NCBI RefSeq assembly: GCF_044704955.1
Contig: NC_091996.1
Coordinates: 72,974,001 to 73,038,000 of the forward strand
Length of the DNA stretch: 64,000 nucleotides
Direction: 5' to 3'
From: Pristiophorus japonicus
Lineage: Eukaryota
Shown here: piece by piece, positions 11,930 through 59,400 of the stretch
Position numbering within the stretch: the stretch's first letter is position 1
How the letters are laid out: the number at the start of each line of letters is the position of its first letter
Notes under the pieces: generated by a model
Told to the model about the DNA's origin: nothing
What the model saw: only the letters and a program-made list of their open reading frames with translations
The model's database searches: none
Translations under genes and position numbers: made by a program

Positions 11930-12430
11930 GAAAGAAAGACTTGCATTTATATAGCGCCTTTCATGACCACCGGACGTCCCAAAGCGTTTTACAGCCAGTA
12001 ACGTACCTTTTGAAGTCTCGTCTCTGTTGTAATGTAGAAAACGAAGCAGCCAATTTGCGCACAGCATGCTCCCACAACTCTTTTGGGGGAACAAAATAAA
12101 CGTTAGATCAAGTGCCCCCCGATCTGGGGGACACTCCAGACACTTAACTGCCCCTTTTTTAAAAATGTTTTTGTTTCTTTTTTTTTGTTTTTTTGTGATT
12201 TTTTGGGGGGGGCATTAAAACCATATATTTTACAAGTGCCCCTTATAAAAGGGGAGGGCAAGCTCCCACAAAGAGCAATGTGATACTGTCCAGATAATCT
12301 TTTCTACTGATGTTGATTGATGGATGAATTTTGGCCAGGACACGGGGGCTAACTCGCCCATTTATCTTTGGAGTAGATCTTTTACGTTCACCTGAGAAAG
12401 AAGTGGTATCTCAGTTTAACGCGCTGAAAA
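11930..12430 (-). mobile_element. Deu-domain (SacSINE1-like) SINE, 3' part, interrupted at 12077-12257
   Basis: Collinear with the uninterrupted SINE copy at 36400-36882. Confidence 0.75.
12077..12257 (-). mobile_element. Tx1-like element 3' UTR fragment with 13-bp TSD
   Basis: TSD GCA(T/A)GCTCCCACA at 12064-12076 and 12258-12270; ends CAAAAGAGT; homologous to 22020-22231. Confidence 0.8.
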
Positions 12431-12959
12431 CCGGCTTTTCCGATGCCATCCTAGGTCCGTAGAAACTCTGTACAGACCTGGGGAGGCCGCAATTTCTGGG
12501 CCATTGTGTCACTGTGAGATGAGCAAGTGACTCTCTTTTCTATACTCAACTGGTGAATGGTCTCTCCCAGTGTGACTGTATCCATGAGTTTCCGCCTCAG
12601 ACGGGCAACTGAATCCATTCCCACAGTCAACAACAACAACTTGCATCTATATAGCACCTATAATGTAGGAAAGAAATGACCTTCGGAATTCTCCCCAGTA
12701 TCCTGGCCAATATTTATCCCTCAACCAACATCACAAAAAACAGATTAAATGGACATTATCACATTGATGTGGTGGTAGATGCTGTGCACAATTTGGCTGC
12801 CGCATTTCCTACATTACAACAGTACTTGATTGGCTGTAAACCATTTTGGCACTATATAAATGCAAATCAATCTACCTTTTCTATTTTCTCGCAGCCGATT
12901 GTCTCTGAGGTAAATTTATTCCAACAATCTCAATAACAAGTGTTCCTTTTACCCAGGTA

Positions 12960-17463: not shown

Positions 17464-20013
17464 GGCTAGAAATTCAGCAACATACCACCCATTTACTGCC
17501 GAATTACCGCGGAGAAACAGTTTACTGCCCAAATGACAGTCAAACTCGAAATTACCACCCATCTATCGCCGGCGGTAAATTCAACACTAAACGATACCGC
17601 CCTCCCATTTTCTTCTACGTATTTCGCCGTCATATTTCGCACAACGCCCAAATACCGGGAATAGCGCTGGAAGGTTTATTGAAGATCATTATGTGCTCAA
17701 TGAGCTCACAAACCTCTGAGGAGGAGGAGGCCTTACTTCCAACGAATTTACAGGGAGAAGCGGTCATAGCTGCACCTGTTCGATACAGTGCGTTAGAAGG
17801 CTGCGCTTCCGAAAAGTGGTCATTAATGCGATATGCCAGCTCATTAAGGCAGAACAGGACTATACTGCCCGTCGAGGTGAAGGTGACTGCGGCACTTGCT
17901 TTCTATGCATCGGGCTCCTTTCAGGCATCAGCTGGCAACATATGCTGCATCTCTCAGCACGCCACACATCGCGGCATTCGCTAGGTAACTGAAGCGCTTT
18001 ACGCATGCAGGATGGACTTTATAAACTTCCCAATGACCAGGGAGGCACAGAGTGAAAGGGCTTTGGGTTTTCATAAATTGCAAACTTCCCCATGAGCCAG
18101 GATGCCATAGACTGTATGCAGATCACCCTGCGAGCACCTTTAGGGGAACCAGAGGTGTACAGAAACTGAAAGGGATTCCACTCCCTGAACGTGCAGCTCC
18201 TCGTCGACCACACGCAATACATCATGGCAGTAAATGCCAATTTTCCAGGGAGGATCCATGATGCATACACCTTGCGTGAGAGCACTGTCCTGTTAAACAG
18301 TGACCTGTTTAAGAGTCAGCCATAAGGTCACTGCTGGATGCTGGGGGACAAAGGATACGGCCTTGCCACCTGACTTTTGACACCCCTCCATAAGCCTCAG
18401 ACAGATGCTGAGCATCGCTACAATAACAGCCACATAGCCACACGCAATATCATCGAAAAGACAATTGGAGTGCTGAAGTAGCGCTTCCGACCTGGACCAC
18501 TCTGGAGGCAGCCTGCAATACCACGCTGATCAGGTCGCTGAGTTCACTGTGGTGTGTTGCATGTTGCACAACTTAGCCATACTGAAGGGACAGGAATTGC
18601 CACAGGGGACTGCAGGACCACCTCAGGAAAGAGGGGAGGAGGAGGTCAAAGAGGACGATAAACCTGGCGATGAACCCATGCCACCATCCCCCCCACCCCG
18701 AACACCACCGAGGAAGCCTTGTGGTGCTTTCACAACTGCAAAACTGCTATGTCAGCAGCTCATAAATGAATGCTTTGCTTGAACGGTGAGAGTTACGTTT
18801 CACCCTTGCCTGGCCATTGTAAGCAACCCTTATAATGATTGTTACCCCTCATTTGGTAAAAGTGAGTGAGACACTGCACAAAAATGGTTCAGTTGAATAA
18901 AATATTTTTATAAATTTCGAAATTTTGAAGAAGTTTGTAATAAAATAATAATTATTTTTCCATTATAATGTGATAAATAAAATTATTTCTTTTAGAACTG
19001 TAACAAAACCCAAACATTAACAACAAACAGTAAAAACTACAAACACCCCCCACCCTGTACCATCTGTGGCCACCATTCCCACTGCCTTTATCCCCAACTT
19101 CACCTTACCCCCAATTGCTTCTTCGCGTTGCCCCTACAGTTACCCCTGCCCCTACCCGGGTTGGGACCACGGCGTTGTGCAGTACAGCACCTTGAGCACT
19201 GCTGCTGGGGGGGGGCGACAATGGCAGCACCATGTGTGGGGGTTCTGGACAAGCTCGGAGTTCTGAAGACCCAGCTTCAGAGTTGGAAGCAATTAATTCC
19301 TCCCGCCTCTCGGGTACTATCACCATCGGTGGTATGACACCTTGGGGTGCAGTACCATATGCCGATTCCATTGATTGCTGCATGGCAGTGACAGAATCAG
19401 CAGTTCGCACTTCCATCCCGGGTCAATTGACCACATCATGCCTCCACCTCATGGACCAGACCCTCTTGGGCTTCCCACGAAATACTTTTTGCCCTCTTCC
19501 TTCCCCCTACCTCTCTTTCAATCTCCCTCTCTCCTTCTCGCTCATTATTTGACTTTGAAAATGTTCAAAAATTATGCAAAGTATACAAATTAATGAGGAC
19601 TATTTAAAATAAATTCAAAAAAAGATGTCCAGAAATCGCTAATTACAGTTTTAAAGTGTTGTAGTATCTCTGCTGCTAGACGACAAATCTATACAATCTC
19701 CTCCCTCTCTCTCTCTCCCTCCTCCTTCTGTGCATGTGCAGGTGACCCCTGACCCCGAATTGCGGTAAAAATAATGTCTGAGGAAAAATAAGTTTGCGCA
19801 TGCGCAGAAGGGCTGTGTTCCTGGATGCCAGCTTTACACGGGCAAAAAAACCACCACCACCCGACACTTACCGCTACCACCGGCCAAATATTACCAAAAC
19901 TAGCGGCTTTGGTTCTTAGCAGGATTCCGCCGGTACTCGAAATACGATCTGCGTTTACCACCAGAATACCGCTGAGATATGGGCGTTACCGGTAAATATG
20001 GAATTTCTAGTCC
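17464..20013 (+). mobile_element. PIF/Harbinger DNA transposon, decayed
   Basis: TIR core CTAGAAATTC (17466-75) / GAATTTCTAG (20001-10); absent from the 46.0 kb paralog; TSD not clean. Confidence 0.85.
17830..18782 (+). pseudogene. HARBI1-like DDE transposase remnant
   Basis: [35 protein letters not shown] and CCMLHNLA motifs broken by stops and frameshifts. Confidence 0.88.
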
Positions 20014-20151
20014 CTTCTGTGACTCGGTGTCAAATTCTGTTATATAACGCTCCTGTGCAGTGCCTTAGGCCATTATCCGATGTTAAAGGCACTATATAAA
20101 TGCAAGCTGTTGTTGTTGGATGTGATTAACAGCAAAATCCAACCCCTGAAA

Positions 20152-20910
<759 letters not shown>

Positions 20911-21863
20911 TTAAGTGATTGTGTAAGATATTGACGAGATGTTTGGTTTGAGCTTCCCATCTGCAAATCTTCACCTTCTAATAACCTGTGAAAGGAGTTT
21001 ACAAAAGTTATCACTGTAAATACAAGATATTCAGAACAGACAATTGTAGTGTCTATAGAACATTCTTTCCCCTTTTGTTCCCCAAAGCTGTAAATCTCCC
21101 ATCCGACACGCTCCTCCCACTTTCTGCTCATTGTGAGAGATTCGTCACCTACATAAGAACATAAGAATTAGGAACAGGAGTAGGCCATCGAGCCCGTCGA
21201 GCCTGCTCCGCCATTCAAAAAGATCATTGCTGATCTGGCCATGGACTCAGCTCCACTTACCCGCTCGCTCCCCGTAACCCTTAATTCCCTTATTGGTTAA
21301 AAATCTATCTATCTGTGATTTAAATACATTCAATGAGCTAGCCTCAACTGCTTCCTTGGGCAGAGAATTCCACAGATTCACAACCCTCTGGGAGAAGAAA
21401 TTCCTTCTCAACTCGGTTTTAAATTGGCTCCCCCGTATTTTGAGGCTGTGCCCCCTAGTTCTAGTCTCCCCGACCAGTGGAAACAATCTCTCTGCCTCTA
21501 TCTTGTCTATCCCTTTCATTATTTTAAATGTTTCTATAAGATCACACCTCATCCTTCTGAACTCCAACGAGTAAAGACCCAGTCTACTCAATCTATCATC
21601 ATAAGGTAACCCCCTCATCTCCGGAATCAGCCTAGTGAATCGTCTCTGTACCCCCTCCAAAGCTAGTATATCCTTCCTTAAGTATGGTGACCAAAACTGC
21701 ACGCAGTACTCCAGGTGCGGCCTCACCAATACCCTATATAGTTGCAGCAGGACCTCCCTGCTTTTGTACTCCATCCCTCTCGCAATGAAGGCCAACATTC
21801 CATTCGCCTTCCTGATTACCTGCTGCACCTGCAAACTAACTTTTGGGGATTCATGCACAAGGA

Positions 21864-22231
21864 TGTCCTTGGAGATGGAGCACGCGGTGTCCACCGGTAC
21901 GCTCGCGGCCTTCCGCGAGAGGTGGGCACCGGAGGGACTGGAGTGCATCATCACGCCCGGCAACCAAATTTTAATTTGATTTTACGTTTTAAAGTTAATT
22001 TGTTTTAATTGCCGGTGCTTTTAGTGTCCCCTTCCCTTTTATAGGGGGCACTGGGGAAAAATTGTGATTTTAGTGCCCAAAAAAAAAAAAAACAAAAAAA
22101 AAAGAAAAGAAAAAAAAAAAACACAAAAAAGGAGGAAAAAAAAAAATGGGCCTTGTAAATGTCTGGAGTGTCACCCAGGTCGGGTGGCACCGTTTAATGT
22201 TTTATGTTTTCACAGATAAACTCAAAAGAGT
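21864..22231 (+). mobile_element. Tx1-like non-LTR 3' fragment, copy 1
   Basis: Encodes SLEMEHAVSTGTLAAFRERWAPEGLECIITPGNQILI*; flanked by TTCATGCACAAGGA at 21850-63 and 22232-45. Tx1 assignment is from recalled similarity of the C-terminus. Confidence 0.8.
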
Positions 22232-22245
22232 TTCATGCACAAGGA

Positions 22246-22585
22246 TGTCCTTGGAGATGGAGCACGCGGTGTCCACCGGTACGCTCGCGGCCTTCCGCGA
22301 GAGGTGGGCACCGGAGGGACTGAAGTGCATCATCACGCCCGGCAACCAAATTTTAATTTGATTTTACGTTTTAAAGTTTAATTTGTTTTCATTGCCGGTG
22401 CTTTTAGTGTCCCCCTCCCCTTTTATAGGGGGCACTGGGAAAATTTGATTTTAGCGCCCCCAAAAAAAAAAAAAAATAAATAAATTAAAAAAAAAAAAAA
22501 GGGGCCTTGAAAATGTCTGCTGTGTCACCCAGGTCGGGTGGCATGGTCTTAATGTTTTATGTTTTGCAGGTAAACTCAAAAGAGT
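22246..22585 (+). mobile_element. Tx1-like non-LTR 3' fragment, copy 2
   Basis: Same 5' end as copy 1, diverged UTR; flanked by the same 14-mer at 22232-45 and 22586-99. Confidence 0.8.
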
Positions 22586-23616
22586 TTCATGCACAAGGAA
22601 CCCCAGGTCCCTCTGCACCACAGCATGTTGTAATTTCTCCCCATTCAAATAATGTTCCCTTTTACTGTTTTTTTTTCAAGGTGGATGACCTCACATTTTC
22701 CAACATTGTATTCCATCTGCCAGACCTTAGCCCATTCGCTTAACCTATCCAAATCTCTTTGCAGCCTCTCTCTGTCTTCTGCACAACCCGCTTTCCCACT
22801 AATCTTTGTGTCATCTGCAAATTTTGTTTACACTACACTCTGTCCCCTCTTCTAGGTCATCTCTGTATATTGTAAACAGTTGTGGTCCCAGCACCAATCC
22901 CTGTGGCACACCACTAACCACCGACTGCCAACTTGAAAAGGACCCATTCATCCCGACTCTCTGCTTTCTGTTAGCCAGCCAATTCTCTATCCATGCTAAT
23001 ACATTTCCTCTGACTCCGCGTACCTCTATCTTCTGCAGTAACCTTTTGTGTGGAACCTTATCGAATGTCTTTTGGAAATCCAAATACACCACATCCATCG
23101 GTACACCTCTATCCACCATGCTCATTATATCCTCAAAGAATTCCAGTAAATTAGTTAAACATGATTTCCCTTTCATGAATCCATGTTGTGTCTGCTTGAT
23201 TGCACTATTCCTATCTAGATGTCCCGCTATTTCTTCCTTAATGATAGTTTAAAGCATTTTCCCCACTACAGATGTTAAACTAACCAGCCTATAGTTACCT
23301 GCCTTTTGCCTGCCCCCTTTTTTAAACAGAGGCATTACATTAGCTGCTTTCCAATCCGCTGGTACCTCCCCAGAGTCTGGAGAATTTTGGTAGATTATAA
23401 CGAATGCATCTGCTATAACTTCCGCCATCTCTTTTAATACTCTGGGATGTATTTCATCAGGACCAGGGGACTTGTCTACCTTGAGTCCCATTAGCCTGTC
23501 CAGCACTACTTCCCTTGTGAAAGTGATTGTCTCAAGGTCCTCCCTTCCCACATTCCCGTGACCAGCAATTTTTGGCATGGTTTTTGTGCCTTCCACTGTG
23601 AAGACCAAAGCAAAAT

Positions 23617-24070
23617 TTACAGATGCTCCCTGACCAGTCCCCATTTATAGACATTTCCTGACCGGTCCCCATTTACAGACGCTCCCTGACCACTCCCCAT
23701 TTACAGACACTTCCTGACTGGTCCCCATTGAGATGCTCCCTGACCGGTCCCCACTGACCGACGCTCCCTGACCGGTCCCCACTGACAGACGCCCTCTGAC
23801 CGGTCCCCATTGACAGACGCCTCCTGACCGGTCCCCGTTGACAGACGCCTCCTGACCGGTCCCCGTTGACAGACGCCTCCTGACCAGTCCCCGTTGACAG
23901 ACGCCTCCTGACCGGTCCCCGTTGACAGACGCCTCCTGACCGGTCCTCGTTCACAGACGCTCCCTGACCGGTTTCCATTGACAGATGCTCCCTGAGCGGT
24001 TCCCATTGACAGACGCCCCCTGACTGGTCCCCATTGACAGGCGTTCCCCATTAACAGACGCTCCCTGACT
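23617..24070. repeat. 28-bp CpG-rich minisatellite, about 16 copies
   Basis: CCTGACCGGTCCCCGTTGACAGACGCCT-type unit at 23823, 23851 and 23879. Confidence 0.9.
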
Positions 24071-24622
24071 GTCGGGTTGTCCTGGAGTTTAGGCCGTAAC
24101 CTGGCACCAGTTGTGGGGAGGTGGATAATGTGGAGTTTGCTGTGGGGCCTGGGCCGCACTCTGTGTGTGAAGCCCGCCCGGGGTTAATTAACCCGCTCCC
24201 TCCGACCATCTCTCACCCGCTGTCGCCGCTCTGCCTCCTGGCCCCGCCCACTCGCCGCGCATGCTCAGCTCTGATCACCTCATTGATCCTCACACTCCGA
24301 TTGGTTGGAGGACCAACCGCCCGCTCGGTCCTCCAGACGCACCCCCGCTCTTCCTATTGGTCCGGAGCGGCCGTCACTCCCCCGAGCAGCGTGAACTGAG
24401 CATGCGCAGTCGGTGGGTGAGAGATGGGTGGAGGGTCAGAGCAAATTCCGCATTATCTGCTTCACACACACCCGCTGTGGGCGTCAGACCCCGAACAACA
24501 ATCTCCGGCTCCGGCCTTTACCCCGAGCGGGTCCCCGGGGGAGGGGCAGCTGCGGGATTTTCTCCCGGTGACAGGCCAGGGAACGGCCGCCATCTTGTTC
24601 GGTCAGGGGCAGCAGGACGCAT
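24070..24622 (+). promoter_or_regulatory. CpG-island ZNF promoter, inverted paralog of 43360-43880
   Basis: GC box, two ATTGG (CCAAT) boxes, GCATGCGCA NRF1-like motifs and a CCGCCATCTT YY1-like motif. Confidence 0.65.
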
Positions 24623-26874
24623 TGTAATACAGATTGAGGATGAGGAAGTTGTGTCAGAAACGAGCGTACAATGCTTAAACAAAGGGGACTACAGTGGGAT
24701 GAGGGCAGAGTTGGCTAAAGTAGACTGGAAACAAGGACTAAACGGTGGCACAATTGAGGAACAGTGGAGGACTTTTAAGGAGCTCTTTCATAGTGCGCAA
24801 CAAAAATATATTCCAGTGAAAAAGAAGGGCGGCAAGAGAAGGGATAACCAAGGAAATAAAGGAAAGTATCAAATCAAAGACCAATGCATATAAGGTGGCC
24901 AAGGTTAGTGGGAAACTAGAGGATTGGGAAAATTTTAAGCAACAGCAAAGAATGACTAAAAAAGCAATAAAGAAAGGGAAGATAGATTACGAAGGTAAAC
25001 TTGCGCAAAACATAAAAACAGATAGTAAAAGCTTTTACAGATATATAAAACGGAAAAGAGTGACTAAAGTAAATGTTGGTCCCTTAGAAGATGAAAAGGG
25101 GGATTTAATAATGGGAAATGTGGAAATGGCTGAGACCTTAAACAATTATTTTGCTTCCGTCTTCACAGTGGAAGACACAAAAACCATGCCAAAATTTGCA
25201 GGCCACAGGAATGTGGGAAGGGAGGACCTTGAAACAATCACTATCACTACGGGGGTAGTGCTGGACAGGCTAATGGGACTCAAGGTAGACAAGACCCCTG
25301 GTCCTGATGAAATGCATCCCAGGGTATTAAAAGAGATGGCGGAAGTTATAGCAGATGCATTCGTTATAATCTACCAAAATTCTCTGGACTCTGGGGTGGT
25401 ACCAGCGGATTGGAAAGCAGCTAATGTAACGCCTCTGTTTAAAAAAGAGGGCAGGCAAAAGGCAGGTAACTATAGGCCGGTTAGTTTAACATCTGTAGTG
25501 GGGAAAATGCTTGAAACTATCATTAAAGAAGAAATAGCGGGACATCTAGATAGGAATAGTGCAATCAAGCAGACGCAGCATGGATTCATGAAAGGGAAAT
25601 CATGTTTAACTAACTTATTGGAATTCTTTGAGGATATAACGAGCATGGTGGATAGAGGTGTACCGATGGATGTGGTGTATTTAGATTTCCAAAAGGCATT
25701 CAATAAGGTGCCACACAAAATATTACTGCAGAAGATAAAGGTACGCGGAGTCAGAGAAAATGTATTAGCATGGATAGAGAATTGGCTGGCGAACAGAAAG
25801 CAGAGAGTCGGGATAAATGGGTCCATTTCCGGTTGGAAATCAGTTGTTAGTGGTGTGCCACAGGGATCGGTGCTGGTACCACAACTGTTTACAATATACA
25901 TAGATGACCTAGAAGAGGGGACAGAGTGTAGTGCAACAAAATTTGCAGATGACACTAAGATTAGTGGGAAAGCGGGTTGTGTAGAGGACTCAGAGAGACT
26001 GCAAGGAGATTTGGATAGGTTAAGCGAATGGGCTAAGGTTTGGCAGATGGAATACAATGTCGGAAAGTGTGAGGTCATCCACCTTGGGAAAAAAAACAGT
26101 AAAAGGGAATATTATTTGAATGGGGAGAAATTACAACATGCTGTGGTGCAGAGGGACCTGGGGGTCCTTGTGCATGAATCCCAAAAGGTTAGTTTGCAGG
26201 TGCAGCAGGTAATCAGGAAGGCAAATGGAATGTTGGCCTTCATTGCGAGAGGGATGGAGTACAAAAGCAGGGAGGTCTTGCTGCAACTGTATAAGGTATT
26301 GGTAAGGCCGCACCTGGAGTACTGTGTGCAGTTTTGGTCACCTTACTTAAGGAAGGATATACTAGCTTTGGAAGGGGTACAGAGACGATTCACTAGGCTG
26401 ATTCCGGAGATGAGGGGGCTACCTTATTATGATAGATTGAGTAGACTGGGTCTTTACTCGTTGGAGTTCAGAAGGATGAGGGGTGATCTTATAGAAACAT
26501 TTAAAATCATGAAAGGGATAGACAAGATAGAGGCAGAGAGGTTGTTTCCACTGGTAAGGGAGACTAGAACTAGGGGGCACAGCCTCAAAATACGGAGGAG
26601 CCAATTTAAAACCGAGTTGAGAAAGAATTTCTTCTCCCAGAGGGTTGTGAATCTGTGGAATTCTCTGCCCAAGGAAGCAGTTGAGGCTAGCTCATTGAAT
26701 GTTTTCAAGTCAAAGATAGATAGATTTTTAACCAATAAGGGAATAAAGGGTTATGGGGAGAGGGCGGGTAAATGGAGCTGAGTCCACGACCAGATCAGCC
26801 ATGATCTTATTGAATGGCGGAGCAGGCTCGAGGGGCTAGATGGCCTACTCCTGTTCCCAATTTTATGTTCTTAT
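24623..26874 (+). mobile_element. Young 5'-truncated CR1 with an open RT frame (24895-26781)
   Basis: 628-codon ORF with KFADD; possible TSD GCAT at 24619-22 and 26875-78. Confidence 0.95.
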
Positions 26875-30600: not shown

Positions 30601-31246
30601 TGGCATGTTGGCCTTCATAGCGAGGGGATTTGAGTACAGGGGCAGGGAGGTGTTGCTACAGTTGTACAGGGCCTTGGTGAGGCCACACCTGGAGTATTGT
30701 GTACAGTTTTGGTCTCCTAACTTGAGGAAGGACATTCTTGCTATTGAGGGAGTGCAGCAAAGGTTCACCAGACTGATTCCCGGGATGGCGGGACTGACAT
30801 ATCAAGAAAGACTGGATCAACTGGGCTTGTATTCACTGGAGTTCAGAAGAATGAGAGGGGATCTCATAGAAACGTTTAAAATTCTGACGGGTTTAGACAG
30901 GTTAGATGCAGGAAGAATGTTCCCAATGTTGGGGAAGTCCAGAACCAAGGGTCACAGTCTAAGGATAAGGGGTAAGCCATTTAGGATCGAGATGAGGAGA
31001 AACTTCTTCACCCAGAGAGTGGCGAACCTGTGGAATTCTCTACCACAGAAAGTAGTTGAGGCCAATTCACTAAATATATTCAAAAAGGAGTTAGATGTAG
31101 TCCTTACTACTAGGGGGATCAAAGGGTATGGCGAGAAAGCAGGAATGGGGTACTGAAGTTGCATGTTCAGCCATGGACTCATTGAATGGCGGTGCAGGCT
31201 AGAAGGGCCGAATGGCCTACTCCTGCACCTATTTTCTATGTTTCTA
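27618..31246 (+). mobile_element. CR1 LINE (partial ORF1 esterase plus nearly intact ORF2)
   Basis: ORF2 pieces 28221-29090, 29091-29864 and 29873-31156, consistent with one in-frame TGA and one frameshift; TTTCTATG tail. Confidence 0.95.
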
Positions 31247-32284
31247 TTTCATTCTTGGGATGTGGGTGTCGCTAGCAAGGCCATCACATATTGCCAATCC
31301 CCAGTTTCCCGTTGAGAAGGTGATGGTGGGCCTTCTTGAACCGCTGCAGTCCGTGTGGTGAAGGTATTCCCACAATGCTGTTTGGTAAGCAGGTCCAGGA
31401 TGTTCATTCAGCGACGATGTCGAAACAGCGATTTCTGTCCACGTCAGGATGGTGCGTGGCTTGGAGGTGAACTTGGAGCTGACTGTGCTCTGTGAGCCCC
31501 TTGCCCGTATCTCAAACAGCTCAATAGAGTCAGGAATTGTTCCCCGCGATGGGAAGGGAGCTGACCTAGCTCCCCTTTTCCAAATGGAGGGCCTCCTGCC
31601 AACGAACAGGAAGCTGTGCAGAAGCATTCTGCGGATAACTATCAAGCCCCAAATGTTAAAAATAATGTTCACCACAACAGACGGAGCATCTGAGAAGTGC
31701 TGAAGCACATCACTAATAAAGTTTCATTAATGTTAGTGTGGTTGGTTTAATTTATCTTTGCTTTATTAATGTTACTATAGTTGGGTTAATGTTACTGGTG
31801 ATTTTTCCTGTTTAAGAACCGCTGTCTCGAAGGACAAACAACAGCTTTTGAAAATAAACTCACAGTTCAAACTAATGTTTCTAATAGAATTCTCTAAATC
31901 TGCTTTTATTTCTCATTTTGGGAGGATTTGCGAGGGCGCAACAACTTCCGGGTCTTTGGCAGCAGTCGCGCCATGTTTTTTTAACCTCACAGAGCCTCTG
32001 AATTGTTCATTCAAGGGACCTTCTTTTTGGCCCAAGTCGATTTCCTCCCTTCTTTCACACTTCGACATTTTGATAATAGACTTTTGGAATTTGGGACAAG
32101 AACAGGCGGATCCAGGTGTTACGCTGGTTACATCCAATCATCAGCCTACCTGTCCCAGGCCCCACCAGTCACCTTATGATTCCACCAACATATCTTCATC
32201 CATTACCCGCCTTTCACCCTCACTGGAGCTGGATTCACCACCATGACCATTCCGCATACTGAGACTCTCTGATTCCCATTTATA

Positions 32285-36130: not shown

Positions 36131-36399
36131 GGACCTCATCCCTCTTTCTCCCTAATCACAAGGATATCTGAGCATTGTTCTGACTGTAACCACAAGGCTG
36201 TGTCATTATCACACACAGATACTGTTTCCTTGTTTTACTTTTCCATAAAAGACCATTTCTTTACATATCCCGTTTCTACACAATTGCAGCAGACATGAGC
36301 AAGGACATGAGGCTCAAAGATGCACACATTTCGCAACAGCAAAAGCTACACTGGGACAAATGTTCAGTCATTTTCACTGCAGACACAATGCAGAGAAAA

Positions 36400-36882
36400 G
36401 GAAAGACATGCATTAATATAGTGCCTTTCATGAGCTCAGGACATCCCAAAATGCTTCGCAGCCAATGAAGTACTTTTGAAGTGTAGTCACTGTTGTAGTG
36501 TAGAAAACTCAGCAACCAATTTGCACACAGAAAGCTCCCACAAACAGCCCTGTGACACTGGACAGATTATCTGTTTTGTTTAGTGATAAATATTGGCCAG
36601 GACACCAGAGATTACTTCCATGCTCTTCTTCTAAATAGTGTCATAGAGCTTTTACGTCCACCTGAGAGAGTAGATGGGGTCTCGGTTTAATGTCTCATCT
36701 GAAAGATGGCACTTCCGACAGTGCAGTACTCCCTCAGCACTGCTCCTCCGATAGTACAGCACTCCTTCAGTACTGCACAGGAGTGTCAGCCTAGATTCTT
36801 GTGCTCAAATCTCTGGGGTGGGACTTGAACCCACAACCTTCTGACAGAGGCAAGAGTGCTGCTCACTGAGCCGTGGCTGACA
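36400..36882 (-). mobile_element. Full-length tRNA-headed Deu-domain SINE (SacSINE1-like)
   Basis: A box GGCTCAGTGAG and B box GGTTCAAGTCC; Deu-like core (GATGAGACATTAAACCGAG..CAGGTGGACGTAAAAG); L2-like tail. Confidence 0.8.
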
Positions 36883-38607: not shown

Positions 38608-41600
38608 AAACATAAGAATTTGGAGCAGGACTAGGCCATTAGGCCCCATCGTGCCTGCTCCACCATTTAATAACATCATGGCTGATCTGATCTTGGACTC
38701 AGCTCCACTTCCCTGCCCGCTCCCCATAACCCTTTACCCCCTTATTGATCAGAAATCTGTCTATCTCCGCCTTAAATATGTTCAATGACCGCACCTCCGC
38801 AGCTGTATGGGGCAGAGAATTCCACAGATTTACGACTCTTTGAAAGAAGAAATTCCCCCTCATCTTAGTTCGAAATGGGTGACTCCTTATTCTTAAACTA
38901 CGCCTCCCAGTTCTGGATTCCCCACGAGTGGCAACATCCTCTCTGCATCTACCTTGTCGAACCCCCTCAGTATCTTACATGTTTCAATAAGATCACCTCT
39001 CATTCTTCTAAACTTCAATGAGTGTAGGCCCAACCTACTCATCTGTTCTTCATAAGTCAATGCCCTCATCTCTGCAATCAACCTAGTGAACCTTCACTGA
39101 ACTGCCTCCAATGCAAGTATATCCTTCCTTCAATAAGGAGACCAAAACTTTATGCAGTACTCTAGGTGTGGCCTCAACAATACCCTGTACAGTTGTAGCA
39201 GGAGTGTTCTGTTTTTATACTCCATCCCCCTTTCAATAAAGGCCAACATTCCATTTGTCTTCTTGATCACTTGCTGTACCTGATACTAGCTTTTTGTGTC
39301 TCATGCACAAGGACCCGCAGGTCCCTCTGAACTGCATTTTGTAGTTTCTTTCCATTTAAATAATAATTTGCTTTTTTTATTTTTCCTGTCAAAGTGGATA
39401 ACCTCATACTTTTCCACATGATACTCATTCTGACAAATTTTTGCACACTCACCGGTCTATATCCCTTTGCAAATTTTGTGTGTCCTCCTCCTCAACTTGC
39501 TTTCCCACCCATCTTTGTACCATCAGCAAACTCAATCCCTTCATCCAAGTCATTAATATCGATTGTAAATAGTTGAGGCCCCAGCACCAATCCCTGTGGC
39601 ACCCCACTAGTTACCATTTGCCAACCGGAAAATGATCCATTTATCCCGACTCTCTGTTTTCTGTTAGTTAGCCAATCCTCTATCCATGCTAAACTATTAC
39701 CCCTGACCTCTTGAGCTCTTATCTTGTGCAGTGACCTTTTATTTGGCACCTAATTGAATCCCTTTTGGAAGTCCAAATACACCACACCCACTGATTCCCC
39801 CTTATCCACCCTGCTCGTTACATCCTCAAAGAATTCCAGCAAATTTGTCAAACATGATTTCCCCTTCATAAATCCATGTTGACTCTGCTTGACTGTATTA
39901 TGCTTTTCCAAATGTCCTGCTGCTGCTTCCTTAATTATGGATTCCAGCATTTTACCAACAACAGATGTTAGTCCTGCTTTCTGTCTGCCTCCTTTTTTAA
40001 ATAGGGGCATTACATTTGCGGTTTTCCAATCTGCTGGGACCTTTCCAGAATCCAGGGAATGTTGGTAAATTACAACCAATGCATCCACTATCTCTGTAGC
40101 CACAGCTTTTAAGACCCTGGGATGCAGGCCATCAGGTCCAGGGTCTTGTCTACCTTTAGGCCCAATATTTTACCGAGTGCTTTTTCTTTAGTGATAGTGA
40201 TTGTTTTAAATTCCTACCTCCCTATAACCCTTTGATTATCTATTATTGGGATGTCTTTAGTGTCTTCTACCATGAAGACCGATACTAAATGTCTGTTCAA
40301 AGTCTCCGGCATTTCCCTGTTCTCCGTTATTAATTCCCCAGTCTCATCCTCTAAAGGACCAACGTTTACTTTAGCTACTCAATTCCTTTTTAGATTACTG
40401 TGGAAACTTTCACTGTCTGTTTTTATTTTCTTGCTAGATTACTCTCATACTCTATCTTTCCTCTCTATCATTTTTTTAGTCATTCTTTCCGATTTTAAAA
40501 ATCTTGGCCATTTTGTATACCATTTTTTAAAATTTGATATCATCGTTTACTTCCTTAGCTAGCCACGAAGGGTTCTCCCTTCTCTTAAAGTCTTTCCTTC
40601 TCACTGGAATATATTTTTGTTGAGAGTTATGAAATATCTCCTTAAATATCTGCCACTGATTATCAACTGTCTTACACTTTAATCTATTTTCCCAGTCCAC
40701 TTCAGCCAACTCTGCATTCATGCCTTTGTAATCGCCTTTATTTAAGATCAGGAACATAAGAACATAAGAAATAGGAGCAGGAATAGGCCATTTGGCCCCT
40801 TGAGCCTATCCCGCCATTCAATAAGATCAAGGCTGATCTGATCATGGTCGCAGCTCCACTTCCCTGCCCGCTTCTCATAACCCTTTACTCCCTTATCGTT
40901 CAAAGATCTGTCTATCTTCACCTTAAATATATTCAGTGACCCAGCCTCCACAGCTCTCTGGGACAGAGAATTCCATCAATTTACAACCCTGAGAGAGAAG
41001 AAATTCCTCCTCAACCAACAATCCATTTGCCTTCCTCATTACTTGCTGTACCTGCATACTAACATTTTGTGTTTCATGCACAAGGATCCCCAGGTCCCTC
41101 TGTACTACAGCACTTTGCAATTTTTTTCCACTTAAATTATAATTTGCTTTTCTATTATTTCTGCCAAAATGGATAACCTCACATTTTCCCACATTATACT
41201 CCATCTGCCAAATTTTTGTCCACTCGCTTAGGCTGTGTATATCACTTTGCAGATTTTTTGTGTCCTCCTCACAATTTGCTTTCCCACCCATCTTTGTATC
41301 ATCAGCAAAATTGGCTACATTACACTCAGTCCCTTCGTCCAAGTCGTTAATATAGATTGTAAATAGTTGAGGCCCCAGCACAGATCCCTGCAGCACCCCA
41401 CTAGTCACTGTTTGCCAACTGGAATGTGAGCCATTCATTCCAACTCTCTGTTTTCTGTTAGTAAGCCAATCCTCTATCCATGCTAATATATTAACTTTTA
41501 TCTTGTGTAGTAACCTTTTATGTGGCACCTTATCGAATGCCTTCTGGAAATCCAAATACACCACATCCACTGGCTCCCCCTTATCCACCCTGCCTGTTAC

Positions 41601-43329: not shown

Positions 43330-44015
43330 CTGGTTCCTGGCCCAGGGAAAGGCCGCGCATGCGTCCTGCTGCCCCTGCCCCAACAAGATGCCGACCTGTC
43401 ACCGGGAGAAAGCCCCGCAGCTGCCCCTCCCCGGGGGCGCCGCTCGGGGCAAAGGCCGGAGCTGGAGGTTGTTGTTCGGGGCCTGAGCCCCACAACGAAT
43501 GTGTGTGAAGCAGATAATGCGGAGTTTGTTGTGGGGCCGGGGCCTGCGCCCTCCGCCCATCTCTCGCCCACGGACCGCGCATGCTCAGCTCAAAGTTATC
43601 TGGGGGACTGACGGCAGCTCCGGACCAATAGGAAGAGCGGGAGCGGGCCTGGAGGACCAAGAGGGCGGTTGGACCTCCAACCAATCGGAGTGTGAGGATC
43701 AATGAGGTGAGCTGAGCATGCGCAGCCAGTGGGCGGGGCCAGGAAGCAGAGCGGCGACAGCGGGTGAGAGATGGTCGGAGGGAGTGGGGTCCAGGTCCCA
43801 CAGCAAACTCCACATTATCTGCCTCCCCATAACTGGCGCCAGGTTACGGCCCAAACTCCGGGACAGCCCGACAGTCAGGGAGCGTCTGTCAGTGGGGAGC
43901 GGTCTGGGAGCGTCTGTCAATGGAGACCGGTCAGGGTGCGCCTGTAAATGAAGGCGAAATGGGGACCAGTCAGGCAGCGTCTAAATGGTGACTGGTGAGG
44001 GAGCGTCTGTAAATG
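43330..44015. promoter_or_regulatory. CpG island between divergent ZNF genes, candidate bidirectional promoter
   Basis: NRF1-like GCGCATG motifs, two CCAAT boxes and a GC box; a few 28-bp units at 43870-44015. Confidence 0.65.
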
Positions 44016-45061
44016 AAGGCGAAATACGGTGAACATTATCCACTCCTGACGATCCACCGATTTCCAGTTTCAGTCTGGTCCGAATCTGAATGATTTTCGG
44101 TTAATCTTTGTAGGAGCAGCTCAAAGATCTGAATCTGGGGAAGTGAGGATGAGAGTCTGCGAACATGAATTGCAAAAGAAAATAGACCCAGGTCCATCTT
44201 CCACCATCCGCACTCTGTGACAATGAAGTTGTTGGCTAATTATGACAAACGATCTATCAATTAGTCCACAAGAGACCAATGAACCGTTGTACTGGCTCTG
44301 CTTTTCATTTTAGTGGCAATTACCAGATGTTTCTCCCAGTGTGAGCTTGGGTTGTGGACTGTAAAATCTCCTGGTCTATTGTGGCGAAGGGGGAGGTGTA
44401 GTTTGAGGTCACTGGTCTGCAAGGTACGGTCTATGTGACAGTGAGAACAGACATTTATTGTGTCATAGTTCAGTGAGACCCCATCACTTACTGAGTGAGT
44501 GAGTATGTATAACTGTAACTCAGAAAGCCGCAGCTTGTTGGAACAGACCTGGGGAGAAGAGAGCTCAGAACTAACCACTGGACTTTCTGTTCTCCACATC
44601 TGGGCAACGATGTCGCTGTCCGCTCAAAGCTGCTAATAAAGCCATTAAAGGTCATTTGTTGTTGTCAGCTGGATTATTTGGTATCAGAAACTGCTATATT
44701 TTGAGTCAATGAGTGGCACTGACCTACAGTCAGAGTCAGCACTTTAAGGAGAGGAAGAGAGAAAATCTGGAGAATAGAAAAGAAATAGTAGGCGACTCGG
44801 CGATGAATCTCTCACAATGAGCAGAGAGTGGGAGGAGCGTGTCAGATGGGAGATTTACAGCTTTGGGGAACAAAAGTGGAAAGAATGTTCCATAGAAGCT
44901 ACAATTGTCTGTTCTGAATATCTTGTATTTGCAGTAATAACCTGTGAAAGGAGTTTACAAAAGTTATTAGAAGGGGAGGATTTGCAAAAAGGAAGCTCAA
45001 ACCAAACATCTCATCAATATCTTACACAATCACTTAATTTGTATATGATCGGCCTCTGATT

Positions 45062-45898
45062 ATGGAAGCAGAAATGTTTGTCTGTGGCAAAAGATTTCAT
45101 TCATCATTGAGGCTGGAAATGCACCAAGAGACACACACACACACACGTGTGTTCCAGTGCACTGACTGTGGAAAGAGCTTTAACCAGTTGCACAGCCTGA
45201 AAAAACATCGCACCATTCACAGCAAGGAGAAACCGTACACGTGTTCTGTGTGTGGACGAGGCTTCAACCGATCATTCAACCTGTTGAGACACAAGGACAC
45301 CTACAGCAGGGAGAAACGGTATAAATGTGGGGACTGTGGGGAGGGAGTTGGTTCCCCATCAGAATTGGAATCTCATTGACGCAGTCACACTGGGGAGAGG
45401 CCATTTACCTGCTCCGTGTGTGGGAAGGGATTAATGACATCATCCAGCCTGTTGGGACACCAACGAGTTCATACTGGAGAGAGGCCATTCACCTGCTCCA
45501 TGTCTGGGAAGGGATTCAGTCGGTCAGCCAATCTTCTCATACACGAGCGATTTCACACCGGGGAGAGGCCATTCATTTGCTCAATGTGTGGGAAGGGATT
45601 CATTACCTCTTCCAACCTTCTGACACACCAACGTGTTCACAGTGATAACAGACCATTTAAATGTTCTGATTGTGAAAAGGGCTTTAAAAGCAAATAGGAA
45701 CTGGTGACACACCAACACATTCATACCGGGGAGGAGCCATTCACATGCTCAGAGTGTAGGAAGAGATTCACTACATTAACCCCACTTCTAATACACCAGC
45801 GAGTTCATACAGGAGAGAGGCTGTTCACCTGCTCCGTGTGTGGGAAGGGATTCACTCGTTCATCCAACCTGCGGAAACACCAGCGGCTTCACACATGA
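45062..45898 (+). pseudogene. C2H2 ZNF pseudogene (class A), paralog of 20152-20886
   Basis: Single frame with stops TGA at 45377 and TAG at 45695; upstream acceptor inverted. Confidence 0.85.
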
Positions 45899-45929
45899 TT
45901 TCAGGGGTTGGATTTCGCTGTTAATCACA

Positions 45930-46460
45930 TCCAATAACAACTTGCATTTATATAGTGCATTTAACAATGGATAATGGCCTAAAGCACTGCACAGGAGCGT
46001 TATATAACAGAATTTGACACCAAGTCATACAAGGAGTTAGGAAAGGTAGGTAGGTTTAAAAAAGTGTCTTAAAGGAGGAAAGAGAGAGAGGATTAGGGAA
46101 GGAATTCCAGAGCCAACGGTGGAGAGATTAAAATCAGGGATGCACAAGAGGCTGGAATTGGAGGAGCGTAGATATCTCAAGAGGGTTATGGGGCTGGAGG
46201 AGGTTACAGAGATAACGAGGGGCGAGGCCATGGAGGGACTAAAATGAGAATTTTAGAATTGAGGCGTTGCTGGACCAGGAGCCAATGTAGGTCAGCGAGC
46301 ACAGGGGTGATGGGTGAGCGGGACCTGGTACTAGTTAGGATACAAGCAGTAGAGTTTTGGATGAGCTCCAGGTTAGGGAGGGTGCAGTGTGGGAGGCGGG
46401 CCAGGAAAGCATTGGAATAGTTGCGTCTCGAGGTGACAAGGGCATGGATGGGGATTTCAA
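45930..46460 (-). mobile_element. L2-like 3' end, uninterrupted copy
   Basis: Reverse complement matches the joined pieces of 15745-20118. Confidence 0.8.
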
Positions 46461-46631: not shown

Positions 46632-47540
46632 GCAAAGAGATTTAGATAGGTTAAGCGAATGGGCTAAGGTTTGGCAGATGGAATACAATGTCGGAAAACG
46701 TGAGGTCATCCACCTTGAGAAAAAAAACAGTAAAAGGGAATATTATTTGAATGGGGAGAAATTACAACATGCTGCAGTGCAGAGGGACCTGGGGGTCCTT
46801 GTGCATGAAACTCTTTTGGAAAATACCTCCTTGTGCATGAATCCCAAAAAAAGTTAGTTTGCAGGTGCAGCAGGTAATCAGGAAGGCAAATGGAATGTTG
46901 GCCTTCATTGCGAGAGGGATGGAGTACAAAAGCAGGGAGGTCCTGCTGCAACTATATAGGGTATTGGTGAGGCCGCACCTGGAATACTGCGTGCAGTTTT
47001 GGTCACCATACTTAAGGAAGGATATACTAGCTTTGGAGGGGGTACAGAGACGATTCACTAGGCTGATTCCGGAGATGAGGGGGTTACCTTCTGATGATAG
47101 ATTGAGTAGACTGGGTCTTTACTCGTTGGAGTTCAGAAGGATGAGGTGTGATCTTATAGAAACATTTAAAATAATGAAAGGGATAGACAAGATAGAGGCA
47201 GAGAGATTGTTTCCACTGGTCGGGGAGACTAGAACTAGGGGGCACAGCCTCAAAATACGGGGGAGCCAATTTAAAACCGAGTTGAGAAGGAATTTCTTCT
47301 CCCAGAGGGTTGTGAATCTGTGGAATTCTCTGCCCAAGGAAGCAGTTGAGGCTAGCTCATTGAATATATTCAAATCACAGATAGATAGATTTTTAACCAA
47401 TAAGGGCATTAAGGGTTATGGGGAGCGGGCGGGTAAGTGGAGCTGAGTCCACGGCCAGATCAGCCGTGATCTTGTTGAATGGCGGAGCAGGCTGGAGGGG
47501 CTAGATGGCTTACTCCTGTTCCTAATTCTTATGTTCTTAT
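46632..47540 (+). mobile_element. 5'-truncated CR1 carrying an 18-bp insert at 46810-46827
   Basis: RT C-terminus ORF 46859-47446; TTCTTATG tail. Confidence 0.92.
46810..46827 (-). mobile_element. Ultra-short Tx1-like 3' end (GGTATTTTCCAAAAGAGT) with 14-bp TSD
   Basis: TCCTTGTGCATGAA at 46796-46809 and 46828-46841, the same site as at 21.85-22.6 kb. Confidence 0.75.
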
Positions 47541-48115
47541 TAATGTTGGGGTAGTCCAGAACCAGGGGTCACAGTCTAAGGATAAGGGGTAAGCCATTTA
47601 GGATCGAGATGAGGAGAAACTTCTTCACCCAGAGAGTGGTGAACCTGTGGAATTCTCTACCACAGAAGTTTGTTGAGGCCAATTCACTAAATATATTCAA
47701 AAAGGAGTTAGATGTAGTCCTTACTATTAGGGGGATCAAGGGGTATGGCGAGAAAGCAGGAATGGGGTACTGAAGTTACATGTTCAGCCATGAACTCATT
47801 GAATGGCGGTGCAGGCTCAAAGGGCCGAATGGCCTACTCCTACACCTATTTTCTATGTTTCTATGTTACGAATAAATCCAATGGGGGAAATATGGAGAAA
47901 TTTGGATGTGGAACGCTCTCCCACAGGAAGTGGTTGAGGCAAATAGCTTTGATGCCTTCAAAAAGAAATGAGGTGAGTACTTGGGAATAGAAACAAAGGC
48001 TGAAAGGCTGAGGTGAGGCAGAGGGAATGGGAGGACACGTGTGTGAAGTACAAACTCCAGCATAGACTAATTGGGCTGAATGGCCTGTTTAGGTGCAGTA
48101 AATTCTATATAATTC
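47541..48115 (+). mobile_element. Two further CR1 3' fragments in tandem
   Basis: 47541-47866 matches 30925-31246; an older 3' fragment follows. Confidence 0.8.
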
Positions 48116-56407: not shown

Positions 56408-59400
56408 TAGAAACATAGAAAATAGGTGCAGGAGTAGGCCATTCGGGCCTTCGAGCCTGCACCACCATTCCATATGATCATGGCTCATCTTCCAACTTCA
56501 GTACCCCATTCCTGCTTTCTTTCCATACCCCTTGATCCCTTTAATTCCAGTGAATATAAACCTAGTCGATCCAGTCTTTCTTCATATGTCAGTCCTGTCA
56601 TCCCGGGAATCAGTCTGGTGAACCTTCGCTGCACTTCCTCAATAGCAAGAATGTCCTTCCTCAGATTAGGAGATCAAAACTGAACACAGTATTCAAGATG
56701 TGGCCTCACCAAGGCCCTGTACAACTGCAGTAAGACGTCCCTGTTCCTATACTCAAATCCTCTCGCTATGAAGGCCAACATGCCATTTGCCTTCTTCACT
56801 GCCTACTGTGCCTACATGCCAACTTTAAATGACTGATGTACCATGACATCCATGTCTCGTTGCACCTCCCCTTTTCCTAATCTGTCACCATTCAAATAAT
56901 ATTCTGCCCTCCTGTTTTTGCCACCATTTATCTACATTATACTGCTTCTGTCATGCATTTGCCCATTCACATAACCTGTCCATGTCACCCTGCAGCCTCC
57001 GAGCATCCTCCTCATAGCTCACACCGCTACCCAGTTTAGTGTCATCTGCAAACTTGGAGATATTACACTCAATTGCTTCATCTAAATCATTAATGTATAT
57101 TGTAAATAGCTGGGGTCCCAGCACTGAACCTTGCGGTACCCCACTCATCACTGTCTGCCATTCTGAAAAGAACCTGTTTATTCCTACTCATTGCTTCCTG
57201 TCTGCCAACCAGTTCTCTATCCATGTGCTTTAATTTTGCACACTAATCTCTTGTGTGGGACCTTGTCAAAAGCCTTTTGAAAGTCCAACACTGTCATGTA
57301 TCTTACGTTGTTATATATAACTGTATCCTAACATGCTATACATGACTGTAATAAGATATGACCTGTAACCACCAGCATACCTTACCACCAGGGGTGCAAT
57401 TGCAGGTATATAAGGGCAGGTCTCAGGCAAGTGCAGCATTCCAGAGCTGTGAAATAAAGGTGAACGTCCAGAGTGACCTTGACTTCACTACATGCCTCGT
57501 GTGAATCTGTACTGAGGGGACAGGACTTTACAGTGGCTATGGGTTACGGGATTACAGAATCCACAGAATGGCGAACGGATCAGATGAAAAGTACAATGCG
57601 GGAGACAATTGGGAGGACTTTATAGAAAGGCTCCAGCAAAGCTTTGTAACCAAAGACTGGTTAGGCGACCATAAGGCACAGACCAGGCACGGACAACTGT
57701 GCCGACGCGCTTAGCAGGCTATTCCTGGTGACCACGGAAGGGTCTGATGAACAGGACTGTGAGATAGTCATGGCAATCAATGCCTTTGAGTCCACAGGTT
57801 CGCCCATGATGGCTCGCCAAATCAGAGCCTGGACGGCCAGCGACCCCACATTATCCTTAGTAAAAAGATACGTCCTAACCAGTGACTGGGCAATGGCTCA
57901 TGATGCCTGCCCCAAGGAATAAAAACCCTTTCACAGGCGCATGCATGAGCTATCACTACAAGCAGACTGCCTGATGTGGGGCAGCTGAGTAGTCATGTCT
58001 CTGCGAGGCAGAGAGGCATTTGTCCGGGAGCTCCACCGCGAGCACCCGGGGATTGTTCTCATGCAGGCCATAGCCAGATCCCACGTCTGGTGGCCTGGTA
58101 TTGACGCGGACCTGGAACTCTGCGAACGAAGGTGCACCATTTGTGCCCAACTCAGCAATGCCCCCAGGGAGGCTCCACTGAGCCCCTGGCCTACCAAACC
58201 GTGGTCGCGGGTGCACGTAGACTATGCGGGCCCATTCATGGGCAAAATGTTCCTCGTAGTTGTAGATGCATTTTCAAAGTGGATCGAATGCACCATTTTA
58301 AACTCGAGCACAACCTCCACCACTGTGGAGAGCCTCGCAACCATGTTTGCAACGCACGGAATCCCTGACATATTGGTCAGTGACAATGATCCGTGCTTCA
58401 CCAGCACAGAATTCCAAGACTTTATAATTGACCACGGCATAAATCACGTCAAGACGGCACCGTTCAAGCCGGCCTCCAATGGCCAGGTGGAGAGAGCAGT
58501 GCAAATCATTAAACAAGGCATGCTTAAAATCCAAGGTCCCACGCTGCAGGGTCGCCTGTTGTGACTGCTGTTGGCATACAGATCTCATCCGCACTCACTG
58601 ACTGGGAGCCCCCCGTGCAATTGTTGATGAAAAGGACCTTAAAAACAAGGCTCTCATTAATCCTCCCAGACATGCACGAAATCGTTGAGGCAAAGCGCCA
58701 TAAGCTGACTGAGTACCATGACAGAAATTCAAGGGGGAGATGGAATGAGATAGGGGACAAAGTGTTTGTACTAAACTATGGCAGGGGTCCCAAATGGCTT
58801 GCAGGGACAGTAACAGGCAAGGAAGGAAACAGGCTACTGGGAGTACAAATGGACAATGGAAAAACCTGCCGGAGGCATGTAGACCAAGTCAAAAGCAGAT
58901 TTACCAACAACACTGCGGAACCAGAGGCAGACTACAATGTGGAACTCGCACCATACCTTGTGGACAGACAGAGGGAACAACCTGAGGAAAGGGCAATCCC
59001 AACAGACAGCCCAGGCGAGTCAACAGCAATCACACCAATCGAAACAGACAGCCCAGGCGAGATACCAGCAACCACACCCAAAGTAAAACAGACACCAAGG
59101 CAAACAACTGAACCACAACTCAGACGCTCCACGCGAGAGCGTAGACCGCCTGAGAGACTGAACCTATAAAGACAATAAGACCTTGGGGGAGGGTGATGTC
59201 ATGTATCTTACGTTATTATATATAACTGTATCCTAACATGCTATACATGACTGTAATAAGATATGACCTGTAACCACCAGCATACCTTACCACCAGGGGT
59301 GCACTTGCAAGAGACAGGTATAGAAGGGCAGGTCTCAGGCAAGTGCAGCATTCCAGAGCTGTGAAATAAAGGTGCAGGTCCAGAGTGACCTTGACTTCAC

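Follow-up and report, generated by a model that had tools for sequence, protein, structure and literature searches.

An 18-nt insert at 46810..46827 (minus strand) of the window, the whole 64,000-nt stretch of Pristiophorus japonicus DNA that was analysed, is most probably the outermost 3' tip of a Tx1-clade LINE with a specific target site, placed by target-primed reverse transcription (TPRT) antisense to its host CR1 element and without poly(A). It serves no function itself and amounts to a dead footprint.

Exact copies of the 14-bp sequence TCCTTGTGCATGAA are located on the CR1 sense strand at 46796..46809 and 46828..46841 (both plus strand), and the filler between them (18 nt) reads GGTATTTTCCAAAAGAGT on the minus strand. 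The left copy would have supplied the primer with its 3' end. The same 14-mer occurs once in a sister CR1 at 26165..26178 (plus strand) and once in each of two further sister CR1s at 41073-41086 and 39300-39313 (minus strand; the latter with one mismatch). Since the 14-mer stands twice at the filled site and only once at the three empty sister sites, the structure at 46796-46841 is confirmed as a true insertion with a target-site duplication, and the perfect 14-bp duplications around 18 nt in a CR1 described in the original prediction were recovered exactly. At up to two mismatches, the 14-mer was found 8 times in the window against 0.7 expected, an excess explained by the copy number of CR1. 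Tandem arrays aside, the window contains just one more pair of exact 14-mers lying near each other (49332/49365, 19 nt apart); it was rejected as an insertion and judged by eye to be an internal CR1 repeat.

CR1-group LINEs are defined by an esterase-type ORF1, an APE and an RT in ORF2, and a short tandem 3' repeat without poly(A). The host (46632..47540, plus strand) is a 5'-truncated CR1-type LINE in which the 3' part of ORF2 is frameshifted by the 32 nt added by the insert and its duplication. An RVT_1 domain was detected in the sister copy at 24820-26781, GDSL esterase and Exo_endo_phos matches in a related CR1 copy at 27.7-29.1 kb, and the end repeat was TTCTTATG. The repeats of the window would fit a cartilaginous fish. 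In elasmobranch genomes, elements of the CR1 group account for 22-34% of the sequence, according to the available part of the source (PMC13343379). Directly adjoining the 3' end of the host is a further CR1 3' fragment, which belongs to a different subfamily (47542-47864; 96% to 30925-31247). Open frames resembling a Gypsy-type integrase region, labelled by eye, are located at 57989-59169.

Two longer related units were found at 22 kb in another host CR1 (21153..23616, minus strand), which is 95-97.5% alike to the 46.6-kb host and has other flanks. The first unit (21864..22231, plus strand; 368 nt) comprises an ORF2 C-terminus and an A-rich 3' UTR between copies of the 14-mer at 21850-21863 and 22232-22245; the second (22246..22585, plus strand; 340 nt) has the same 5' start and is followed by the 14-mer at 22586-22599. 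Both units share with the 18-nt insert the CR1 nucleotide, the antisense orientation, and the 14-bp duplication. A 3' UTR fragment of about 180 nt from a related subfamily (12077..12258, minus strand; 71-73% to the 22-kb units) lies, in the region 12064-12271, within a repeat that we take to be SINE-like, empty copies of which are present near 36388-36690 and 12693-12822. Its duplication is 13-14 nt long with one mismatch, the boundary being ambiguous by one A. The two 22-kb units show 1 difference in 116 nt of coding sequence and 7 in 81 nt at the 3' end (P 0.009). They share the start TG-TCCTTG, the reverse complement of the duplication's final 6 nt (rough chance 1e-3). The shared start and the uneven divergence could reflect a hotspot of truncation, a non-autonomous derivative, or a chimeric tandem. 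The segment 22490-22599, which covers the 3' UTR and read-through target, has a stable predicted fold (z -3.33, equalled by 1 of 200 shuffles) with a long stem-loop at GTGTCACCCAGGTCGGGTGGCAT, the counterpart of which is kept in the 12-kb fragment; this stem-loop is a candidate recognition signal for ORF2. No Rfam matches were obtained in the window. The 22-kb CR1 carries a 28-nt minisatellite at its 5' break (23593-24099), a relative of which lies at 43874-44015 in the paralogous unit.

The clade was assigned through the last 37 codons and stop of the ORF2 in the first unit (21866..21979, plus strand). This 37-codon peptide yielded seven phmmer matches among 1.84 billion representatives, three of which were LINE ORF2 C-termini; the other four (P0001, P0003, P0004, and P0007) were dropped as repetitive, unrelated proteins. 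Protein P0016, reached via one of the three LINE matches, is identical to the window peptide at 23 of 37 positions (62%) and has RT and zf-RVT matches, both below the Pfam cut-offs. Over 99% of its length it shares 41% identity with Xenopus Tx1L ORF2 (E 1.5e-138), compared with 26% over 33% for a LORF2 protein and a weak match (E about 1e-6) to human L1 ORF2p. Aligned directly to the Tx1L C-terminus, the window peptide gave 12 of 29 identities (E 2e-6). By the criterion that ORF2 of the Tx1 clade is closer to Tx1L than to L1, and on a chain of similarity leading from 37 residues through P0016 to Tx1L rather than on an RT tree, the 22-kb family would be Tx1-like. The 18-mer itself is linked to the clade by its 9-nt terminus alone. 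The APE-type endonuclease is absent from the truncated window copies and present in Tx1L itself. A word search for the short ORF end found none of four candidates, and an NCBIfam search gave nothing useful.

The last 9 nt of the insert are identical to the 3' end of both 22-kb units, and its last 10 nt are common with the 12-kb fragment, so that 9-10 of its 18 nt match ends in the window. The chance of an 18-nt filler starting with those 9 terminal nt at the fixed position is about 5e-6. The CAAAAGAGT end, without poly(A), is common to all four inserts (18, about 180, 340, and 368 nt), and a fixed 3' end with variable 5' truncation, as produced by TPRT, was seen in these four as well as in the 12- and 13-nt contig variants described below. 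Three of the four ends in the window fall on one CR1 nucleotide, and the fourth, of the diverged subfamily, lies in the SINE-like repeat; in the available part of PMC4494074, a Tx1 family is regarded as target-specific when more than 20% of its copies are flanked by one target. Unit 22246-22585 ends in GGTAAACTCAAAAGAGT and unit 21864-22231 in GATAAACTCAAAAGAGT. The 18-mer differs from the nearer of these ends by three substitutions and one gap, and three substitutions in 17 nt have a P of 0.008-0.04 at the divergence of the hosts. The original prediction was thus right that the 18-mer is unlike the 22-kb ends; however, the end that it quoted for them, GGTAAACTCAAAAGAGT, fits only unit 22246-22585. 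Neither a longer element with the exact end of the 18-mer nor a full-length source element was present in the window or among the contig matches listed, and no match of at least 12 nt to the 18-mer, sought as a local template for the filler, was found elsewhere in it.

Contigs from four of 24 listed public runs (X1, X21, X5, and X10) were aligned to the region at 88% likeness; the evidence is drawn from the matches listed and detects stubs resembling the reference. In X1, of which 72% was read and which may be the assembly's own sample, contig depth was 1394.5 at 46821, 304.6 at 46823, and 87.4 at 46825-46827, values that are not copy numbers. Depth on the insert was about 0.05% of that of the target, which likewise does not translate into copy number. 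Positions 46821 and 46827 were covered in X1 with no other letter. One X1 contig (depth 32.7) omits 5 nt at 46823 and so has a 13-nt insert, and two rows of equal depth (35.2) omit 3 nt each at 46821 and 46825; we take the two rows for a single contig whose insert is 12 nt long. The fall in depth is as expected for many copies of the site sharing the last 12-14 nt and then diverging, and as an indirect signal, reaching 12-14 nt of the end, it leans towards a longer element ending in TTTTCCAAAAGAGT. Run X21 comes from this organism too, but from a different study and sample. Its record 19 extends over 46782-46887 and takes in both duplications; it has 6 gaps and a G at 46821, and its 28 letters beyond the left junction are below the 31 of the tool. 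A second X21 contig has a G at 46827. In X5 and X10, from other organisms, the empty form alone was recovered at the site, which is uninformative on absence. The junction motif had no matches in metagenome and viral contigs, and a locus search in metagenomes with alignment A1 gave 379 pattern matches, none of which was confirmed. Two matches of the 3' UTR motif in bacterial genomes were taken as chance.

These data bear on three other readings of the 18 nt. It is extremely unlikely that the structure was created in assembly, or that repair by chance produced a duplication around filler that has nothing to do with retrotransposition. The repeat is of very high copy number, and among the matches listed no contig joined the insert to the unique flank of its own locus; against this, X1 contigs cover 46821 and 46827 without another letter, a similar structure occurs in the second sample, and the terminal match has a chance of only about 5e-6. 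With regard to the check in raw reads called for originally, the 12- and 13-nt inserts in X1 and the similar short insert in X21, all from contigs, make an artefact unlikely, although the listed contigs stop short of tying the insert to the flank of its locus. A highly improbable variant holds that the cDNA templated some 9-10 nt and that the remainder (GAAAATACC) is untemplated or a template-jump filler from repair. The lack of a match of at least 12 nt for the 18-mer elsewhere in the window fits it, as do a few additional bases at the 5' junction of an L1 (PMC3219598) and the 5' extranucleotides (PMC2912911) described in the available parts of these sources. However, the depths of 1394.5 through 46821 and 304.6 through 46823 mean that many contigs share at least 12-14 nt, and most of the insert therefore looks templated by a multi-copy end; its 5' few nt could be untemplated. 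It is also very unlikely that a longer Tx1 insertion was later shortened by an internal deletion that left its outer few bases. Matches to known ends are limited to the last 9-10 nt, and the first 8-9 nt could be the 5' edge of a longer insert, but the duplications on both sides are perfect, GGTA at the start of the insert aligns to the GGTA of unit 22246-22585, and 12- and 13-nt contig inserts with the same end would require repeated precise deletions.

Whether the 18-nt insertion and the 22-kb units go back to separate events was examined from their hosts. The zinc-finger units at 20013-21149 and 44799-46034 are inverted paralogues (86-88%), and the filled CR1s lie on opposite sides of them with different CR1 3' flanks, in agreement with the earlier observation that the host CR1 is placed differently in the duplicated unit. 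The CR1s are far more alike than these paralogues and therefore arrived separately after the duplication. The units belong to a cluster of C2H2 zinc-finger exons with an 84-nt period (9.5-10.5, 20.2-20.7, 42.1-42.9, 45.2-45.9, 48.3-48.8, and 62.6-64 kb), in which some frames are broken, units recur as duplicates in either orientation, and many CR1 copies lie between them. The two filled hosts differ at 8 of 177 positions upstream of the site (4.5%) and at 17 of 692 downstream (2.46%). Downstream they are closest to each other, at 4.9-5.2% from the empty 26-kb copy, with 26 private sites in that copy versus 7 and 9 in the filled hosts; gene conversion or shared ancestry is thus possible. Upstream they are no closer to each other (4.5% vs. 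3.9%; P 0.2, not significant).

A very small probability was accordingly assigned to the reading that the stub came inside its CR1 through gene conversion, retrocopying, or duplication of a filled CR1, the TPRT stub having been made elsewhere. In its favour are the downstream distances just given and the distal-insert depth of 87.4, which allows 2-6 single-copy units. Against it, the hosts are no closer upstream, deriving the 18-mer from the 22-kb units needs three substitutions and a gap, and a depth of 87.4 minus the two shorter variants leaves 19.5, which we read as near the single-copy contig depths of 14 and 17.4. The comparison of sequences therefore leaves the original claim of an independent event standing on the flanks and on the end sequence (P 0.008-0.04), tempered by the downstream closeness of the hosts (2.46%), and the 18-nt insertion appears to be separate from the 22-kb event, as these lines of evidence support.

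Under the preferred reading of a TPRT insertion, the geometry of the site and known TPRT suggest that the endonuclease would nick the CR1 sense strand right after TCCTTGTGCATGAA and, at a distance of 14 nt, the opposite strand. From the free 3' end, cDNA synthesis would then be primed exactly at the ...CAAAAGAGT end, and all three CR1-site inserts in the window do begin at the nucleotide of that end. Synthesis would stop after about 18 nt, joining of the cDNA to the opposite end of the target would involve no more than 1 nt of microhomology, and fill-in would leave the perfect 14-bp duplication that is seen. The source RNA probably came from a sister subfamily ending in ...TTCCAAAAGAGT and not from the 22-kb units. 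TPRT with the same 14-bp stagger, as originally proposed, is the best reading and can be assigned to a family through the Tx1-clade ORF2 end in the 22-kb units, but the word "abortive" does not fit: a full duplication on both sides means that both nicks, joining, and fill-in were completed and that cDNA synthesis alone stopped early. Integration was completed, and the insert is therefore better described as extremely 5'-truncated.

An idea about RNA-target pairing was also considered and is thought quite unlikely, namely that the bases upstream of CAAAAGAGT form a target-pairing segment varying by subfamily and that stubs of 12-18 nt are footprints of RNA-target mismatch. The segment would fold back on read-through target RNA or hold the displaced target strand, and an RNA with an ill-fitting segment would prime and then drop off within 10-20 nt; here, RNA of the SINE-site subfamily would have been delivered to the CR1 site. 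In 14 post hoc comparisons, the 12-kb end was complementary to its own target (a fraction of 0.008 of 3000 random 14-mers folded as well), the 18-mer gave fractions of 0.054 with the SINE-like target and 1.0 with CR1, and the 22-kb ends with their own target were unremarkable (0.15-0.56). Pairing of an element's end with its own target held for one of four elements and does not stand as a general rule. Short RNA-target pairing at initiation has been proposed for SART1Bm and R1Bm in the available part of PMC7265360.

The insert is well explained by known retrotransposon biology. Tx1L of Xenopus laevis inserts into the Tx1D DNA transposon, and other mobile elements are known as targets of Tx1 families, as are tandem Tx1 copies around a duplication (PMC4494074, PMC1950540, PMC4640811; Tx1L in the first two, all as far as these sources were available). 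The present family resembles Tx1L in ORF2 C-terminal homology and in a fixed site within another mobile element. It differs in that its target is the coding region of a CR1 LINE, entered in antisense, instead of a DNA transposon, and in being known from truncated copies alone. In the available part of PMC4494074, the crocodilian Tx1-Mar and SINEU-3 similarly prefer a site in another repeat, often in the opposite direction, tandem copies of crocodilian Tx1 sandwich the duplication, and sister families have different targets, as here. The targets given there are Mariner, Harbinger, and LTR elements, microsatellites, U2, U5, 5S, and satellites, and CR1 is not named in that part of the text. No Tx1 family targeting CR1 was found in the literature searched, which was mostly open-access, with Repbase and Dfam outside the search. 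A literature search on minimal insertions returned nothing relevant.

Among human elements, the available parts of the sources describe a 34-bp L1 insertion with a deletion (PMC7058536) and an insert consisting of poly(T) alone, interpreted as an element with severe truncation (PMC3219598). The 18-nt insert is like such severely 5'-truncated L1 and Alu copies in being a completed insertion of the 3' tip alone. Human L1 and Alu depend on poly(A) and use loose TT/AAAA targets, whereas here a defined end without poly(A) meets a fixed site. Moreover, 5'-truncated L1 copies tend to have shorter duplications in the part of PMC2912911 available, in contrast to the equal duplications of the 18-nt and 350-nt inserts found here. 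A 14-bp duplication for inserts of both lengths suggests that the endonuclease, rather than the extent of reverse transcription, fixes where the second nick falls.

The stub itself is inert, and its value is that of a marker and a natural record of the minimal length of copy-in. If absent from Repbase, the CR1 coding site and the SINE-like site of the sister subfamily extend the list of Tx1 targets. Because a defined poly(A)-free end is combined with a fixed site in a very high-copy repeat, many insertions can be compared directly, and one genome could reveal how short the cDNA can be, how constant the second nick is, and which rules govern 5' joining.
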